Numbered from the stretch's first letter, positions 6,368-51,808 are shown. The stretch: 64,000 nt of DNA from a virus (IMGVR_UViG_3300045988_147517:1-64000), one strand, 5' to 3'. Numbers and translations: made by a program. Notes: a model not told the origin generated them from the letters alone.

Positions 6368-7035
6368 TGGCAACTAAAACATTAAACGCAAAAATATGTC
6401 AAGCCGCCAATACAAAAGCGGGGTTTGGAAGTGTTGTGCTAGGTCGTTTGCAACTCGCTTATGAGACAGATACAAACATGCTTAAGGTTGGAATTGGAGA
6501 GGGTATTACATATCCCGCACAACCTTATGCCGCTTTAGACACACCAGTAGGAACTACTGTTGAGATGGCAAAGAAAGTCGTACCATATGGATATTTGGCG
6601 CAAAATGGGCAAGCAGTTTCAAGAACCACGTATGCCGCACTGTTCGCTGTGATTGGAACAACATATGGTGCGGGTGATGGTTCTACTACTTTTAACTTAC
6701 CAAATCCAGACCAGAAGTGTACTTGGGGAACAAACGTTAATAGCGAAGTTGGAACAGTAAACGGTACGTTCTCACATTATCATAATACGAGTACCTTTGT
6801 TGCGGCTGGCGGTGCTATTAATAATAATTCAGGAGCGTGGGCATATAGCGCTATTGGACGTGATGACTCATATGGATTTAACTCTGGTGTTTATACCTAT
6901 TGGAAAGAAGGAGACGAAGGTACAATTACTAGTATATGGAATATTAATCATGGTTCTGCTTGTATGGATTCGAGCACAGGAATCACAAACCAAGTGCCAA
7001 GACTTTACCACACCTATAAGGTTATAAAATATTAA
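6367..7035 (+). CDS. Tail-collar domain receptor-binding protein, paralogue 1
   Basis: Collar motif GQAVSRTTYAALFAVIGTTYGAGDGSTTFNLPN. N-terminus is MATKTLNAKI... and the C-terminus ends ...KY, like its paralogues. Confidence 0.7.
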   Translation: MATKTLNAKICQAANTKAGFGSVVLGRLQLAYETDTNMLKVGIGEGITYPAQPYAALDTPVGTTVEMAKKVVPYGYLAQNGQAVSRTTYAALFAVIGTTYGAGDGSTTFNLPNPDQKCTWGTNVNSEVGTVNGTFSHYHNTSTFVAAGGAINNNSGAWAYSAIGRDDSYGFNSGVYTYWKEGDEGTITSIWNINHGSACMDSSTGITNQVPRLYHTYKVIKY

Positions 7036-7055
7036 TTATAGAAAGAAGTGATAAT

Positions 7056-7463
7056 ATGGCGATAGGAAAAATGATATCAGATGACTATGGAAGAAAAGCA
7101 ACTTACCATAAAATAGATAAAATTGAATTTGATTATTTATTAGATATTATATCTGTCACAGTTAATCATTACGTAGATACCGAAATGCGCAATGTTGAAA
7201 AAGAAGCTGAATCTGATATACAAAATGAAATAGATAAATATTATACGTATAAAGAATTATTTGCAGATGATGAATTAACCAATCGACAAACGCAAGAATT
7301 TTGTGGAATGAATATACAAGAGTTAGAAGCATGGAAAGTTCCACAAACTTTTATGGGTTCAACAATTTATAAATTAGAAGATACCGGGATTGATTTCAGA
7401 GAAAATCTTTATAAAGAAATTGTTAAAATTATTCCTCAATTACAAAATAGCAAAGGGGTATAA
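7056..7463 (+). CDS. Small acidic protein, paralogue of 5963..6367
   Basis: It has the same size (135 aa) and the same position upstream of a tail-collar gene as 5963..6367. The two sequences are similar by eye. Confidence 0.5.
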   Translation: MAIGKMISDDYGRKATYHKIDKIEFDYLLDIISVTVNHYVDTEMRNVEKEAESDIQNEIDKYYTYKELFADDELTNRQTQEFCGMNIQELEAWKVPQTFMGSTIYKLEDTGIDFRENLYKEIVKIIPQLQNSKGV

Positions 7464-23809: not shown

Positions 23810-25321
23810 TTAGAATTTTCCTTCGTGCAATCTATTTCGGATATAACTTAAAGAATCACGACGTACCATAGAACTATTTTGATATACTGTTTCTAATAAA
23901 TTCCCTTTCCATGAACATGCGTCTTCATAAGTTAATCCATCAATACACATCAAACCTCCATCGGCTTTTTCGGTTACAACACAACACCCTTTATGTGATT
24001 TTTTAAAATGGCCATCATCTGTTTTGGGGTCTTTATAAATAGGAATAGGTTCGCCATTTACCTCACAATAAGTTGCTTTCACCGCGCTACAATATGTATC
24101 TCTAGTAAATGGTTGGAGTGCTTGCGTCTCAAACTTAGTAGGCTCTTCTATAACAACTTCTTCGAGGCACTGCATACTAAAGGAGCCAGCGCCAAGAGAT
24201 ACATTATTGGCGGCAAATCCCAGATATTCAAGAGAGTCATAAATTGATTTTGCCCTTGAAATGGTAATAGAGTCACCATATACTACACCAATATGAGGGT
24301 CTAAAACTTTATATCCTTTTGAATTAACAGTACCCCCGAAGTTTTCCCATAGGCTTAAAACAGTATTTACTACAATATTTACAGGGGCACCACTATCGCC
24401 TCTGATATTTAGCTTTCCATTATGGCGCATAATATCTTCTTTGCATTGAGGCAAAATATTATCAACCATATTCCAATAATCATAACTGTCCGCTACCATA
24501 CTAAATGAGGTATTAGGATAAATATCGTTTAACAAGCGTTTTACCATTGTAATCTCATCGCCATCTACTGCATAGTTACTACACATTACAGAGTGCTCAG
24601 TGCTAACAGCGCCAAAATTAACTTCTTCATTTTTTACATTTGCATTATAATAATTTTCCATAAATTGAGCAGACGGGACTGTAGCAGATAATACAAAGGA
24701 TGTTAGCCAGCCAGCGCTACTTAAAATACCAGATTCGTTACTTTCTTCTCCTCTATATGAGAACAAACTCATTGCTTTGGCGCGTGGAACATCATCATCA
24801 ACAGTAAGGTCATAATATTCGTTAACAATTTGGCGATACCAGTAACCAACTGATGCGGCAATTTGTGAATGCCATAAGGTATTGCTTAACAATGATTCAA
24901 CGGTATTTACAACCCAAGCAAAATCTTTATGGGTATTTGCGATTTGAACACAAGGAACTCCCATTGGAACAATTGTTCCTTCTGGTAGTGATTTAATCTC
25001 CAATGGAAGGTACCCTAGTTTGTGTAGCGCTTCAATTTTTGGAAATAATTCGTTTTCATCTGGAATAGATGATTCCACATAGCGTTCATAATTTTCTCTG
25101 ATTTTATCAATTGGCTTTCTAAAAAATTCATTGTCGAACCAATCAATTAAATATTCAATTAAAAAATACTGTAGCCCAAAATGAACTAAACAATATTTAT
25201 CATCTAGCCGACTTTTGCGTGGTGTATAATATGAGACAATCCGTTCAGTCCCCTCTGGGTACTGTTCTTCGTGAACGGCCTTATAAAAATCAATTAACAT
25301 TAATGGGTTTGTTCTAAACAT
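23810..25321 (-). CDS. Nicotinamide phosphoribosyltransferase-like protein (Nampt/NadV or Namat-type)
   Basis: 503 aa. The N-terminus NPLMLIDFYKAVHEEQYPEG is typical of the Nampt family. SD aaaggag. Confidence 0.7.
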   Translation of the reverse strand: MFRTNPLMLIDFYKAVHEEQYPEGTERIVSYYTPRKSRLDDKYCLVHFGLQYFLIEYLIDWFDNEFFRKPIDKIRENYERYVESSIPDENELFPKIEALHKLGYLPLEIKSLPEGTIVPMGVPCVQIANTHKDFAWVVNTVESLLSNTLWHSQIAASVGYWYRQIVNEYYDLTVDDDVPRAKAMSLFSYRGEESNESGILSSAGWLTSFVLSATVPSAQFMENYYNANVKNEEVNFGAVSTEHSVMCSNYAVDGDEITMVKRLLNDIYPNTSFSMVADSYDYWNMVDNILPQCKEDIMRHNGKLNIRGDSGAPVNIVVNTVLSLWENFGGTVNSKGYKVLDPHIGVVYGDSITISRAKSIYDSLEYLGFAANNVSLGAGSFSMQCLEEVVIEEPTKFETQALQPFTRDTYCSAVKATYCEVNGEPIPIYKDPKTDDGHFKKSHKGCCVVTEKADGGLMCIDGLTYEDACSWKGNLLETVYQNSSMVRRDSLSYIRNRLHEGKF

Positions 25322-27489: not shown

Positions 27490-28779
27490 CTAATCTTTGG
27501 CAATTCCACCTCCTTTTATAATGAGGTGGAATTGCCTTTTCCTTTCTTCTTGTAAATAGCTCATTCTAGCTTTTAATAATTTTAATTTTTTACAACTTAT
27601 ACCTGCATGAATTCTAGTTCCATCAAGTAATCTAATATCAAAATAACCTGTACTTCTTCTACCAAATATAAAGCACTCTTGGTCTTGAAATTTAACCTTG
27701 TCAAATAATCTAAAACCTTTAACAATATATGGCGCTTGGTTTAATTTCCTCCTTCCACCTTTTAGAAAATTAGCTTTATGGATTTTTCTATTATGGCATC
27801 TTACTTTTTTCTGATAGATGAAAGTTTCAAGAGGCTTTGCATTGAAATTTCCACTAATGCAATAAGCATCGTTATAGTGTTCTTTAGCCAAACCATGTTT
27901 GATGCGATTACTTTTTGTTATGTAGCCATAAGTTAATTCTACATCTTGATATACCTCTTTTAGTTTGTTATATAGCGGCCATCTCATAATTCCCATAAAG
28001 GTGGCATCATTATACTTTTTACCTCGTTTGATTTTAAAATCAATTTCTCCATTATGGTATTTCTTATGACAAGTACGGCATAAAGTAATTAGATTATTTG
28101 GAGCGTTTCCGCCTGTCTTTCGTGATTCTAGATGATGCACTTCCAACACTTTATCTTTAGACTTACCTAGACAATACCTACAAGTATGATTATCTCTAAA
28201 TAAGATATATTCTCTTGTATTCCAACCTTTCATTTCACCATTTTGGTAATCAACACCACTCATTGTTTTACCCTCAGCTTTAGCTTTAAGAAGTTGAGTA
28301 TCAAAAGACGCTACTTCTACTATTACTTTGCTAATAGGTAAAATTTTGTGAACATTTTCTATTACCTTTAAATGGCTATCAATCTTATGTCTTATTGATG
28401 GTGCTAACCACCCTTCTTTTTTAGTAGCTACACGATTATTAAATCTTGCTTTGCGATATCTTAAACGGTTTCGTCTAGCTCTTCTACTTTCTCTTCTTGT
28501 TGACAACAACTCAACAATGTCATTGCGAAGTTCAACTTCAGAACAATATAGTTCCTCTGTTTCTGTAGTTGCTGATAAACCTACGTGTTTAGAACCAGCA
28601 TCTACGCCTAAAGTAATTGGTTGGGTATAATTATTACCCTCGTAATTTAATTGAATTGTAAATGGACTACGCTTAACAATTTCAGCTTTACCATTTTTTA
28701 ATAAATGTCTCACTTTACCAAATCTATGCGTTGGCATAAGCGGTAATCCATTTTTATTTAAAACATATACTAACTGCAT
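27490..28779 (-). CDS. iscB: IscB RNA-guided nuclease (OMEGA system)
   Basis: 429 aa. PLMP motif (NGLPLMPT). RuvC-I LGVDAGSKHVG. Arg-rich bridge helix RRESRRARRNRLRYRKARF. RuvC-II VIVEVASFD. HNH EVHHLESRKTGGNAPNNLITLCRTCHKKYH. RuvC-III HYNDAY. Confidence 0.85.
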   Translation of the reverse strand: MQLVYVLNKNGLPLMPTHRFGKVRHLLKNGKAEIVKRSPFTIQLNYEGNNYTQPITLGVDAGSKHVGLSATTETEELYCSEVELRNDIVELLSTRRESRRARRNRLRYRKARFNNRVATKKEGWLAPSIRHKIDSHLKVIENVHKILPISKVIVEVASFDTQLLKAKAEGKTMSGVDYQNGEMKGWNTREYILFRDNHTCRYCLGKSKDKVLEVHHLESRKTGGNAPNNLITLCRTCHKKYHNGEIDFKIKRGKKYNDATFMGIMRWPLYNKLKEVYQDVELTYGYITKSNRIKHGLAKEHYNDAYCISGNFNAKPLETFIYQKKVRCHNRKIHKANFLKGGRRKLNQAPYIVKGFRLFDKVKFQDQECFIFGRRSTGYFDIRLLDGTRIHAGISCKKLKLLKARMSYLQEERKRQFHLIIKGGGIAKD

Positions 28780-49676: not shown

Positions 49677-49719
49677 TTTGTTCTCCTTTTTTATATAAAT
49701 TTTAAAAATTAAATATAAT

Positions 49720-49851
49720 TCATGTTAACTTTAAACAATGGTAAAAGTCAATCAAATTTAAATACATTCTAATTTAAACACAGATTCAACGCTTCTCGCT
49801 CAATAACCTTACGGTTAAGTATCAACGAGCTAACCCCGGTTTAACCTCGGT
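49720..49851 (-). ncRNA. Stand-alone omegaRNA-like gene, copy B (scaffold + CRISPR-repeat-like segment + candidate guide)
   Basis: Minus-strand sequence is aaccgaggttaaaccggggttagctcgttgatacTTAACCgtaaGGTTAttgagcgagaagcg-ttgaat-ctgtGTTTAAattagaatgtatttaaat-ttgattgac.... A consensus promoter ends 6 nt upstream. Confidence 0.6.
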
Positions 49852-49857
49852 TCTTTG

Positions 49858-49886
49858 ATTATAACATATAATTTTTGTTATGTCAA
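49858..49886 (-). promoter_or_regulatory. Consensus sigma70-type promoter driving omegaRNA copy B
   Basis: TTGACA-taacaaaaattatatgt-TATAAT on the minus strand. The predicted start is ~49851, at the first conserved scaffold nucleotides. Confidence 0.7.
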
Positions 49887-49895
49887 ATTTATTTT

Positions 49896-50237
49896 TTAAT
49901 CATCCCATTCAATATCTGGGTATGGATTTCTATTAATTTCGTCTATATAGAATTCCCCGTAAAACCAATCTTTTAAATTGATATATATTTCATTTATTTC
50001 TTGCAATGTTTTTTCGATAAATTCATTTATTTCTTCGTCATCATATTTATTATCAGCAAAATACTTTTCACTATTAAATATTTTACAAAATGGATAAGAA
50101 TGCACTTCAACTTTTACATGAATGCACCAACCACAATAGCGATAATTTATAATTATATCAAATGGCAAGTCGTATAAATCGTATAATTCTTTACATTCTT
50201 TTGTTTTATTTTCATAATAATATTTTTTAGTAATCAT
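49896..50237 (-). CDS. Hypothetical protein
   Basis: It starts 27 nt after the last array repeat. Confidence 0.5.
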   Translation of the reverse strand: MITKKYYYENKTKECKELYDLYDLPFDIIINYRYCGWCIHVKVEVHSYPFCKIFNSEKYFADNKYDDEEINEFIEKTLQEINEIYINLKDWFYGEFYIDEINRNPYPDIEWDD

Positions 50238-50264: not shown

Positions 50265-50492
50265 ATTCAAATACATCTCGTGTTAAACACAAACTTTGGC
50301 ACTTGATGTCTATTTTTTCTGGAAATTAAAATTTAAATGCATCTCATGTTAAACACAAACCCCGGCATCTATTACCGGAGACAAACAAATAGTAAGATTT
50401 AAATACATCTCATGTTAAACACAAACCCTAATCGTCTATATCTGCGCCTTTTAGAATATCTAATTTAAATACATCTCATGTTAAACACAAAC
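50265..50492 (-). CRISPR. CRISPR-like mini-array: 4 x 30-bp repeats, 3 x 36-bp spacers, adjacent to tnpB
   Basis: Repeats lie at 50463-50492, 50397-50426, 50331-50360 (1 mismatch) and 50265-50294 (2 mismatches). Coding-strand consensus is GTTTGTGTTTAACATGAGATGTATTTAAAT. The period is exactly 66 bp and the spacers are unrelated to each other. Confidence 0.75.
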
Positions 50493-50602
50493 TATAGTAT
50501 TTATCTCATTCTCATTACGCTAACATTTGATGCTTCTCACTCGATAGTCTAATGACTAAGCATAAATGAGCTATCCCCGGTTTAACCTCGGTTGGTGGTA
50601 AG
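50493..50602 (-). ncRNA. TnpB omegaRNA scaffold, copy C (cis copy) plus degenerate repeat-like linker
   Basis: It starts right after the tnpB stop: cttaccaccaaccgaggttaaaccggggatagctcatttatgcTTAGTCattaGACTAtcgagtgagaagca, then tcaaa-tgttagcgtaatgagaatgagataaatac-tatag leading into repeat 1. Confidence 0.65.
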
Positions 50603-51751
50603 TTAATTTACCAGCCGCTTTCCTTCTTTTAGAATATTTTTAGCGGCATTTATATCCCTATCCTCTTTGTAGCCACAAACCGGGCATACAAAGGTTTTTT
50701 CGGATAAAATATTCTCTTCTATTACATGTTCACACTTATGGCACGTCTTTGAGCTTGGGAAAAATGTATTTACTTGTACATATTTATGGCCATATTCTTC
50801 TGCTTTATACGCTAACATTTGGCAGAAATTAAAGTACCCTATATCGGTAATAGCAGAATTAAAATTTTTCTTTGTTCTATTTAAAAACCCTTCTTTCTCT
50901 TTATTCTGTTTCATCATTTCTTGCAATTTAAGTTTCTCAACCGCAATAATTTTATTATCTCTCGCAATCTTCCTACTCAAATTATGTGCGAAATATGCTC
51001 TTTGTCTAGCAATTTTCTGATGAACTTTCGCTACTTTAATACGTTGTTTTTCGTAATTTTTACTACCACGTTGACAATGACTTAATTTGCGTTGCTCTCT
51101 GGCTAAACGTTCTTTGCTTTTCTTATAGTAGTTAGGATAATCTGGAATACTTCCTTTATTATCCACAAAGTAATCTCGTGATGAAAAATCAAGCCCGATG
51201 GATTGGGATTTCCCTTTCTTCTGTTTCATTTTAAATTCAATGCAGAAGGCAATATAGTATTCCCCTGATGGTGTCCTAGAAAGTGTTGCATCACATATTT
51301 TTGCATCATCTGGAATTGGCCTATCAACAATCATTTTGACGGTTGTTGACAATTTTGGAATTTTAACTCTATTACCTTCAATACGCAACCCATTACCGCC
51401 AACTGTATTTCTCGTTTTAAAGCTATCCCTACATCTACCACGCTTCTTAAATTTAGGAAATCCGGGCTTTTCCCCATTTTTTAATCTTCTAAAAAAGTTT
51501 TTATACGCCTGTTCTAAATCCCGCTGAACAAAATTTAAGGCATGTGCATCCACTTCTTTTAACCAAGTATTATCTGCTTTATATGAAGCGTAGCTCGTCT
51601 TTAATGACTTCCCCGTCTCTTCATAATGCTTTATTTTGTCAGCAAGCATAGCATTCCAAATCCATCTGCAAGCGCCAAATGTTTTATTTAAATATTCTCT
51701 CTGTTCTTTATTTGGGTAGATACGATATTTATAACCTCTAACTACTAACAT
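50603..51751 (-). CDS. tnpB: TnpB-family RNA-guided nuclease (382 aa), no tnpA
   Basis: N-terminus YKYRIYPNKEQREYLNKTFGACRWIWN. RuvC-I SIGLDFS, RuvC-II IIAVEKL. Zinc finger CHKCEH...CPVCGY. RuvC-III EDRDINAAKNI. Confidence 0.85.
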   Translation of the reverse strand: MLVVRGYKYRIYPNKEQREYLNKTFGACRWIWNAMLADKIKHYEETGKSLKTSYASYKADNTWLKEVDAHALNFVQRDLEQAYKNFFRRLKNGEKPGFPKFKKRGRCRDSFKTRNTVGGNGLRIEGNRVKIPKLSTTVKMIVDRPIPDDAKICDATLSRTPSGEYYIAFCIEFKMKQKKGKSQSIGLDFSSRDYFVDNKGSIPDYPNYYKKSKERLAREQRKLSHCQRGSKNYEKQRIKVAKVHQKIARQRAYFAHNLSRKIARDNKIIAVEKLKLQEMMKQNKEKEGFLNRTKKNFNSAITDIGYFNFCQMLAYKAEEYGHKYVQVNTFFPSSKTCHKCEHVIEENILSEKTFVCPVCGYKEDRDINAAKNILKEGKRLVN

Positions 51752-51779
51752 TTTCTTACCTCATCAACTTTATGTCTAT

Positions 51780-51808
51780 ATTATATCATGTTGGCGCTTA
51801 CTTGTCAA
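51780..51808 (-). promoter_or_regulatory. Consensus sigma70-type promoter driving tnpB (AAGCGCCAA motif in the spacer)
   Basis: TTGACA-agtaagcgccaacatga-TATAAT on the minus strand, ~28 nt before the tnpB ATG (SD gaggt). Confidence 0.7.

Follow-up and report, generated by a model that had tools for sequence, protein, structure and literature searches.

A minimal phage TnpB with part of its omegaRNA fused to a type I-B CRISPR leader end and repeats

The 64,000-nucleotide (nt) viral sequence IMGVR_UViG_3300045988_147517:1-64000, referred to here as the window, carries on its minus strand a tnpB gene that is followed directly by a structured RNA scaffold and then by a short CRISPR array, all within positions 50265-51808. 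Our analysis shows that this locus joins a minimal IS605-type TnpB and two-thirds of its omegaRNA (the 5' part, with stems 1-3 and stem 4's 5' strand) to the leader end and repeats of a type I-B-family array. We propose, with a probability of about 0.6 and from comparative sequence evidence, that TnpB uses the array-encoded spacers as guides. On this reading, the locus is a self-contained RNA-guided nuclease module of a large gut phage of ~120 kb, whose host is a Holdemanella-like member of the gut Firmicutes, and in kind it is a TranC (transposon-CRISPR intermediate) or type V-U-like system, made by array capture and not by duplication of an omegaRNA segment. An initial annotation of this DNA had described a TnpB linked to an array, with a scaffold acting like a tracrRNA (trans-activating CRISPR RNA), and comparative RNA evidence argues for that description. 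The features it listed were all found where it had placed them, save the likeness between linker and repeat and the details of a loop-repeat pairing, both of which are taken up below.

The TnpB nuclease and its scaffold RNA

The tnpB gene (50603..51751) encodes a minimal RuvC nuclease of 382 amino acids (aa) that lacks the domain found at the C-terminus of ISDra2 TnpB, as judged by Pfam, a PDB match, and an AlphaFold2 model. Pfam recognized HTH_OrfB_IS605 (PF12323), OrfB_IS605 (PF01385), and Cas12f1-like_TNB (PF07282), and the protein has the HTH/WED-REC N-terminal part, the split RuvC D-E-D triad, and the zinc-ribbon TNB domain that define a TnpB. Residues D188, E272, and D366 and the cysteines C337/C340/C356/C359 are invariant among 53 homologues, which, together with the Pfam domains, confirms the 382-aa TnpB with RuvC D/E/D motifs and a zinc finger that had been annotated initially. 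In a sequence search, ISDra2 TnpB (PDB) was matched over its full length (E=6.5e-58), whereas Cas12f structures were matched only at E of about 1e-9 to 1e-8 and in the C-terminal part. The AlphaFold2 model (predicted local distance difference test score 87.8) superposed best, using Foldseek, on the TnpB structures 8h1j and 8iaz, with template modeling (TM) scores of 0.76-0.81; weaker structural matches were LaTranC (TM 0.69/0.57) and AsCas12f (about 0.62, within a Cas12f range of 0.57-0.66). The protein is colinear with ordinary TnpBs, with no insertions and no expanded REC/WED such as would place it in type V-F, and it nests within TnpB lineages and not within an established Cas12 subtype, as expected for the TranC lineage. 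Among the TnpBs of phage relatives, the ratio of nonsynonymous to synonymous substitution rates (dN/dS) was 0.06-0.14, indicating purifying selection. These comparisons identify the phage protein as a bona fide TnpB whose active site is intact and which is under purifying selection.

We found no tnpA in the window, either by Pfam, by tblastn of the window, or by a PADLOC scan of its 61 open reading frames (ORFs), and neither left-end (LE) nor right-end (RE) transposon hairpins, and the guide is predicted to follow a CRISPR repeat; by these marks, the gene does not reside in a transposon. Type I-B cas homologues were likewise not found in the 64-kb window by tblastn or among the 61 ORFs scanned with PADLOC, so that cas6, cas8b, cas7, cas5, cas3, and cas1-2-4 are all missing from it, and the absence of tnpA and cas1/cas2 noted initially is borne out by both methods. 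Upstream of tnpB, a perfect TTGACA-N17-TATAAT promoter (51780..51808; 12/12 match, TG-extended) is confirmed as annotated, and the promoter and 5' untranslated region (5'UTR) are homologous upstream of tnpB in both clusters of relatives; only 11 nt lie between the conserved 5'UTR and the tnpB ATG.

Downstream of tnpB lies a structured scaffold of ~70 nt. Its omegaRNA-derived part (50536..50593) begins with stem 1, which has 3 bp and a 9-nt loop AGGUUAAAC containing the pseudoknot strand, and continues with stems 2 and 3; the anti-repeat GCAUCAAAUGUUAGCGUAA (50515..50533), which follows stem 2, corresponds to stem 4's 5' strand and is predicted to pair with positions 3-22 of the repeat. The omegaRNAs of the IS605 relatives L015 and L017 (the L numbers denote loci compared with the window) are colinear with this scaffold. 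In the canonical relatives, the omegaRNA runs from a 5' hairpin through a stem enclosing a hairpin (...UAGCUYG...CRAGAAGC), a long terminal hairpin, and an 8-nt tail to the guide, an order that equals stems 1-4 and the pseudoknot tail of ISDra2. Across relatives, seven base pairs of two scaffold stems had changed on both sides; none of 500 shuffles reached the observed covariation score, and slid controls collapsed. The structured scaffold of the initial annotation is thus confirmed, and its covariation shows it to be under selection.

The remainder of the omegaRNA architecture appears to be supplied by the CRISPR repeat. The helix between anti-repeat and repeat was paired in 85% of cells, with compensatory changes in L003 and L025: the window has GCGUAA:UUGUGU where L003 has UGUUUAA:UUGAAUA, and L025 has C-G at one stem 4 pair where the window has U-A. 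The best duplex between the tracr-like region and the repeat maps to the anti-repeat in most relatives' repeats, and minimum free energy folds recovered the helix in W1 and L003.

The position of the guide is best judged from the pseudoknot. The stem-1 loop of ISDra2 pairs with nucleotides -6 to -2 of the tail, with a G opposite the A at -2 (PMC10097598). In six canonical relatives, the loop segment at hairpin positions 9-13 pairs with tail positions -3 to -6 or -7, again with a G facing the A at -2, and this holds for two different sequences (G-GRCA with UGUC-A and G-GAAC with GUUC-A). The loop of the phage modules has become G-UUAAA, which pairs over 5 bp with the repeat tail A-UUUAA-A-U/C and leaves both the register and the G·A unchanged, whereas the alternative tail, in which the scaffold ends ...CAUCAAAUG and the leader serves as guide, would form only 2 bp. 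Both natural A-to-G variants of the tail (window repeat 4 and L024 repeat 1) keep a G-U pair. The comparison was made with a fixed-register script, since MAFFT alignment of hairpin and tail shifts the register. Because the pseudoknot would form with the last 8 nt of the repeat, the guide is predicted to begin at the spacer. Colinearity, covariation, and register together argue for an omegaRNA architecture with stems 1-4 and a pseudoknot before the guide.

Two other pairings were considered. The initial annotation had noted that GUUUAAC in each repeat is complementary to GUUAAAC in the loop of the 5' hairpin; that complementarity is present in the window, but relatives lose its outer 3 bp with no compensating change, and we rejected the pairing as not conserved, the conserved pseudoknot using the 3' tail of the repeat instead. 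The linker motif UAAAUAC was 100% paired with the repeat tail, yet it shows no covariation and competes with the pseudoknot, and a type I-B leader motif seems the likelier reading.

The array and its type I-B ancestry

The array consists of four 30-nt repeats and three 36-nt spacers with a period of exactly 66 nt. Repeat 1 (50463..50492) and repeat 2 (50397..50426) have no mismatches, repeat 3 (50331..50360) has one, and repeat 4 (50265..50294), at the trailer end, has two; they are separated by spacer 1 (TAGATATTCTAAAAGGCGCAGATATAGACGATTAGG, 50427..50462), spacer 2 (CTTACTATTTGTTTGTCTCCGGTAATAGATGCCGGG, 50361..50396), and spacer 3 (TTTAATTTCCAGAAAAAATAGACATCAAGTGCCAAA, 50295..50330). All of this agrees with the repeats, spacers, period, and mismatch gradient given in the initial annotation, which had also allowed that the repeat might be a generic intergenic one; no further copy occurs in the window (0 expected by chance). 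The last 8 nt of repeat 1, AUUUAAAU, make up the pseudoknot tail, and spacer 1 is predicted to be usable in cis as the guide of an unsplit RNA. On the minus strand, a GC-rich hairpin (50360-50380), formed by spacer 2 together with the opening bases of repeat 3 and followed by UUUGUGUUU, resembles a terminator and could cut off the array transcript after two spacers.

The repeats belong to a known type I-B family, which had been missed initially. The window repeat is identical at 23-27 of 30 positions to type I-B repeats of Clostridia and Eubacterium (the comparison set being Clostridium autoethanogenum, E. maltosivorans, C. chauvoei, C. taeniosporum, and C. butyricum), and its last 20-23 nt are those of the repeats of C. 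autoethanogenum, E. maltosivorans, C. chauvoei, and C. taeniosporum. Published repeats with the same 3' 20-23 nt include those of C. chauvoei (PMC5465433) and E. maltosivorans (PMC9303578), and the type I-B repeat of C. autoethanogenum is GTTGAACCTCAACATGAGATGTATTTAAAT, with spacers of 35-38 nt (PMC4022347). BLAST with the repeat returned multi-copy arrays on Clostridium plasmids, and on C. butyricum pNPD4_2 such an array lies directly behind cas6-cas8b-cas7-cas5b-cas3-cas4-cas1b-cas2. The 30+36 period of the phage array is that of type I-B arrays.

The segment between scaffold and array, first described as a linker, resembles a type I-B leader. This segment, TTAG...GAGAATGAGATAAATACTATA (50493..50523), abuts repeat 1, and its 5' end overlaps the anti-repeat. 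In anchored, ungapped comparison, the 21 nt before repeat 1 matched the type I-B leader end of C. taeniosporum at 12-13/21 positions (p about 0.001) and that of C. butyricum at 10-13/21, scores close to the 14/21 that these two type I-B leaders share with each other; only about 30 nt of leader are retained at the phage locus. Repeat family, spacer length, and repeat-proximal leader motif thus all agree with a type I-B array. We conclude, from these sequence likenesses, that the array and leader end descend from a type I-B array and were captured, and not amplified from the omegaRNA, because the repeats are of the type I-B family and the linker is like a type I-B leader end.

The locus DNA had no match among GenBank phages in near or distant searches, and the exact 30-nt repeat is absent from IMG/VR. 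IMG/VR yielded two matches to the scaffold motif AACCGAGGTTAAACCGGGG, whereas JGI metagenomes and GTDB genomes yielded none. Against Rfam, the only matches were sub-threshold ones to CRISPR-DR3, on the opposite strand.

Our proposal for how the locus may work is as follows. The consensus promoter would drive tnpB, scaffold, and array as a single transcript, while a second promoter, described below, would supply extra scaffold RNA. Pairing of the scaffold's anti-repeat with the repeat would rebuild stem 4, and the last 8 nt of the repeat (A-UUUAA-A-U) would rebuild, by pairing with the loop of stem 1 (G-UUAAA), the pseudoknot that directly precedes the guide in TnpB and Cas12 RNAs. Each spacer could then act as a guide, spacer 1 in cis, like an unsplit omegaRNA, and the others in trans, in the fashion of tracrRNA and CRISPR RNA (crRNA). 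TnpB would cut spacer-matching DNA flanked by a transposon-associated motif (TAM), with rival phages or other mobile elements as likely targets, and new spacers would probably be installed by a host type I-B Cas1-Cas2-Cas4 at the retained leader-repeat junction. The tracr-like pairing, the use of spacers as TnpB guides, the writing of spacers by host type I-B machinery, and the role against competitors are what we infer from the comparisons above.

The host's type I-B machinery could write phage spacers because the leader is kept and the pseudoknot tail equals the 8-nt 5' handle of type I-B crRNAs. This leads to a bolder idea, which we put forward as speculative and on balance doubtful, that the phage TnpB and scaffold represent an effector swap onto a host class 1 CRISPR system, with the host type I-B machinery writing the spacers. 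If that were true, host-made type I-B crRNAs might even load into TnpB, a 382-aa class 2 nuclease would be parasitizing class 1 adaptation and guide biogenesis, and the locus would document the origin of a type V system by capture of a pre-existing array.

Related phages and competing explanations

Close relatives of the phage TnpB fall into only three clusters at 90% identity (96%, 72%, and 72% identical to it); the next, at ~44%, are ordinary TnpBs in canonical IS605 elements with an adjacent Y1 tnpA. The close relatives share the layout of promoter, tnpB, scaffold, linker, and array, with three to five divergent but related repeats, and as in TranC, a CRISPR array lies adjacent to and downstream of the nuclease gene and is conserved among relatives. 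This architecture is kept across 72-96% protein identity, where synonymous divergence is saturated, and the spacer sets are entirely different. Phages with an identical TnpB (P0137) differ in the presence or absence of one internal spacer unit, and some carry a tandem duplication. Spacer turnover among related phages, for which the initial annotation had advised looking, is thus evident both within and between lineages. At the leader end of the array, several relatives have a tandem of anti-repeat, leader remnant or linker, and repeat (L025 3770-3865; also L026, L027, and L029-L032). In L002, a solo scaffold (6965-7070) 3 kb upstream of tnpB has a 4-bp stem 4, a GAUA loop, a repeat tail GUGUAUUUAAAC, and one guide, and from its sequence it looks like a natural single-guide RNA.

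The window contains a second scaffold that was overlooked initially (49886..49707). It is preceded by its own perfect promoter (49858..49886), which lies 5 nt upstream and is conserved in L001, L005, and L006; the scaffold itself (49786..49852) is 78% identical to the first by sequence comparison, has covarying stems, and has no tnpB of its own. The rest of this module (49707..49785) begins with a unit resembling a repeat (49785..49756) that is joined to the scaffold, continues with 19 nt (49755..49737), and ends with a degenerate repeat (49736..49707); it represents a decayed array or else a single-guide RNA. In L001, L005, L006, L021, and L022, the second module is intact, with promoter, scaffold, leader/linker, and three repeats. 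Between the two RNA modules of the window lies an ORF of 113 aa (49896..50237) that has no Pfam match and is conserved in cluster-1 relatives. In cluster-1 phages, this ORF always stands between scaffold-array modules (L001 1788-2129; L005 622-963), and cluster-3 phages carry different small ORFs there.

One related phage, L005 (IMGVR_UViG_3300045988_118521, 380-620, compared with window 51766..50520), lacks tnpB and scaffold 1 and keeps the promoter, linker, array 1, ORF, and module 2. Its junction is precise, with ...AAAGTTGAT joined directly to TTAGTATAATGAGAAT (longer right side TTAGTATAATGAG); the right side resembles the post-scaffold sequence of the window, and the linker-like segment begins exactly at this junction. 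The TTGAT that immediately precedes TTAG at the junction is the TAM of ISDra2 TnpB (PMC10097598). We consider a deletion of tnpB and scaffold 1 most likely, with an excision or homing footprint as the alternative; we prefer deletion to an empty site because both clusters share a homologous promoter and 5'UTR and TTGAT is missing from cluster 3. In other relatives, tnpB is truncated or split into two ORFs (212 and 188 aa on one 31.6-kb contig; P0125/P0126), and therefore the nuclease is being lost in part of the phage population.

As for the phage itself, the window encodes tail proteins, a DNA polymerase, a helicase, ribonucleotide reductase, HNH endonucleases, and nicotinamide phosphoribosyltransferase (the last two kinds at 23810-25321 and 27490-28779). 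Contigs as long as 119 kb carry the exact TnpB protein, and a 72%-identical relative is annotated in Holdemanella porci. PADLOC matches among the window ORFs include a Cas4-like nuclease and a DarG-like macrodomain protein. Perfect TTGACA-N17-TATAAT sites number 11 in the window, all on the minus strand, versus 0.06 expected; they span 21307 to 61412, most have the TG extension, and this strikingly uniform promoter set serves the non-structural half of the phage.

Several observations weigh against the use of array spacers as TnpB guides. We found no protospacers for 18 spacers (from the window and relatives) in GenBank phages or PLSDB plasmids, no match in IMG/VR for the 5' 22-24 nt of the window's three spacers or of one cluster-3 spacer, and no match for spacer 2 in GTDB genomes. 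The sole match from any spacer is an exact one of the first 22 nt of spacer 1, which ends after those 22 nt, to a gene start on a GC-rich bacterial metagenome contig (L033 410-431; PDWJ01007539.1), and it is probably due to chance. The database check of spacers advised initially therefore produced no credible target and hence no TAM; nor did the spacers match elsewhere in the window or in any other locus compared. The duplex energies are weak (z about -1 to -3.6, in AU-rich sequence), the anti-repeat pairing does not exceed 11/13 pairs in the L001 and M2 lineages, and most stem 4 and pseudoknot pairs are invariant within the phage family, so that covariation in these elements relies on outgroups whose omegaRNA ends were placed where similarity stops. 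Cleavage of the repeats by a host Cas6, if it occurs, would strip the stem 4 strand from the crRNAs. L005 keeps both arrays without tnpB, and tnpB is split in some relatives; the arrays may have value independent of TnpB.

A rival reading takes the two halves of the locus as neighbors and not partners, with an ordinary selfish or homing TnpB beside a type I-B mini-array that is served only by host Cascade, Cas6, and Cas1-2. We think this rather unlikely, although it would account for the precise tnpB-less junction in L005, the persistence of the arrays there, and the type I-B kind of the repeats and leader. The omegaRNA would then end ...CAUCAAAUG, with the adjacent leader as guide (UUAGCGUAAUGAGAAU; leader sequence TTAGCGTAATGAGAAT), and the sequence after the TTGAT of the L005 junction, which is the ISDra2 TAM (PMC10097598), does resemble this would-be guide. 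With that tail, however, the conserved pseudoknot is impossible (2 bp versus 5 bp), and the scaffold would miss the stem 4 3' strand that is present in all canonical relatives. Furthermore, the TAM-reading residues of ISDra2 (Y52 and Q80) are not conserved in an alignment with the phage TnpB, LE/RE hairpins and tnpA are lacking, the window has no type I-B cas genes, and the scaffold is tied to arrays in every module, even in the tnpB-less module 2 with its own promoter. On the TAM residues, the cluster-3 5'UTR, and the register of the pseudoknot, we demoted the reading of the L005 junction as a homing or IS insertion.

The locus might instead be a decaying relic or a non-nuclease regulatory RNA, a set of remnants or of transcription and termination signals for neighboring phage genes. 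Heterogeneous repeats within the array, the truncated second module of the window, relatives with a split tnpB or none, the lack of spacer targets, and the terminator-like hairpin of spacer 2 and repeat 3 would all be in keeping with this, but we judge it improbable: TnpB is under strong purifying selection with invariant catalytic residues, the RNA stems covary, perfect promoters are dedicated to both modules, and the spacers have turned over fully while the architecture has been kept. Least probable of all is the model of the initial annotation, in which serial duplication of the 3' segment of the omegaRNA, together with its flank-derived guide, generated the array de novo. Duplication is generally the favored route for type V origins (PMC10691335), and relatives of the L025 type do show a tandem of anti-repeat, leader, and repeat. 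The model is nevertheless contradicted by the repeat, which is 23-27/30 identical to genuine type I-B repeats, one of them in an array behind a full cas operon, by the typical type I-B period, and by the match of the linker to type I-B leader ends; the omegaRNAs of the canonical relatives end ...GGGAGYAUGUCAC, unlike the phage repeat, and the gapless alignment of linker and repeat on which the model had drawn has an ungapped identity of only 15/30.

Comparison with known systems

Canonical IS200/IS605 elements (ISDra2; L015, L017, and L007-L010) share with the phage locus the TnpB fold, the RuvC triad, the order of stems, the register of the pseudoknot, and the G facing the A at -2. The phage locus differs in having no tnpA or recognizable transposon ends, in that the stem 4 3' strand and pseudoknot tail appear to come from CRISPR repeats, and in having several predicted guides where the canonical elements have a single guide derived from the flank. 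Stand-alone omegaRNAs acting in trans have been described (Altae-Tran et al. 2021, as summarized in PMC10691335). The second module of the window and the solo RNA of L002 are similar to these in being promoter-driven with no adjacent nuclease gene, whereas the phage scaffolds carry CRISPR repeats or a repeat-derived tail and lie in the same genome as tnpB, 1-3 kb from it.

Type I-B arrays of Firmicutes share with the phage array a repeat of 30 nt belonging to the ...TAACATGAGATGTATTTAAAT family, 34-38-nt spacers, a leader-end motif, and repeat decay at the trailer end; the phage window differs in having no cas genes and in that the rest of the leader is replaced by tnpB and a repeat-complementary scaffold. 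Mini-arrays that rely on host Cas proteins are found in phages and prophages, for example in C. difficile prophages, and in archaeal viruses.

A second TnpB-family nuclease tied to repeats of this kind occurs in type V-F1. The C. baratii plasmid pNPD11_1 (L037, NZ_CP014203.1, 7457-9160) encodes a 445-aa Cas12f1 homologue (PDB 8j12/7wju, E about 5e-72), followed by two to three repeats of the same type I-B family (TTAATGATTAACATGAGATGTATTTAAAT) ending ...AACATGAGATGTATTTAAAT, and a segment of its tracr region, CTTTAAATATAG, is complementary to the repeat tail. By analogy, this independent association supports the plausibility of the phage arrangement. Such type V-F1 mini-array loci are like the phage locus in having a TnpB-derived miniature effector, then a tracr region, and no adaptation module. 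In contrast, the C. baratii effector has 445 aa with an expanded N-terminal half and only 27% identity to the phage TnpB, at the RuvC C-terminus, and known Cas12f proteins act as dimers. Co-occurrence of type V-F with type I-B, with adaptation borrowed in trans, has been hypothesized (bioRxiv 10.1101/2024.04.09.587696). We rejected the "Cas12 hacker" preprint as a precedent for array hijacking, since it concerns a TrxA cofactor.

The transposon-CRISPR intermediates that the initial annotation mentioned match the published TranC concept (Jin et al., Cell 2025, doi 10.1016/j.cell.2025.09.004, as cited in PMC13565253 and bioRxiv 10.64898/2026.03.27.714800). The novelty it implied does not hold, because such intermediates have already been described, including CauTranC9 (clade 9), a TnpB-sized one from a Caudoviricetes genome with demonstrated activity (bioRxiv 10.64898/2026.03.27.714800), and forty V-U* branches have been described as well (PMC10691335). 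The phage locus is like TranC in having a TnpB-lineage nuclease beside a short CRISPR array without cas1/cas2 and a guide RNA that is split at stem 4 into tracr-like and crRNA parts, the split being predicted in the phage; like CauTranC9, it is phage-borne and has neither REC/WED expansion nor an ISDra2-type C-terminal domain. It differs from LaTranC (9jfo/9jfq), which the phage protein matched at E=7e-18 in the RuvC part only, versus E=6.5e-58 and a TM score of about 0.8 for ISDra2, and it differs in its lengths from TranC clade 9 (382 aa versus a mean of 414; repeats of 30 versus 38 nt).

If our reading of the locus is correct, the phage TnpBs, at 382-386 aa, would be among the smallest nucleases guided by a CRISPR array, with a scaffold of roughly 100 nt and natural designs for single-guide RNAs. 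It also points to RNA-guided nucleases as armament of large gut phages, with spacers that host type I-B machinery may write. Several forms coexist in the phage family: a single-guide RNA that is not split, a split RNA with its array, an anti-repeat unit in duplicate, a scaffold standing alone, and an allele without tnpB. The order of evolutionary events could therefore be tested.

The clearest difference from TranC lies in ancestry. The literature on TranC and on TnpB/Cas12 classification that we examined does not mention type I-B, and the phage repeats and leader are of type I-B ancestry, which therefore points to capture and not to splitting plus duplication as in TranC. Insertion of a TnpB near a pre-existing array has been named as a route to type V that "cannot be ruled out" (PMC10691335). 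The phage locus, if so, would be a concrete natural example of this second route, in which a TnpB that lands next to an existing array remodels its omegaRNA to use the repeats of the array, the remodeled parts here being the loop of stem 1 and stem 4's 5' strand.

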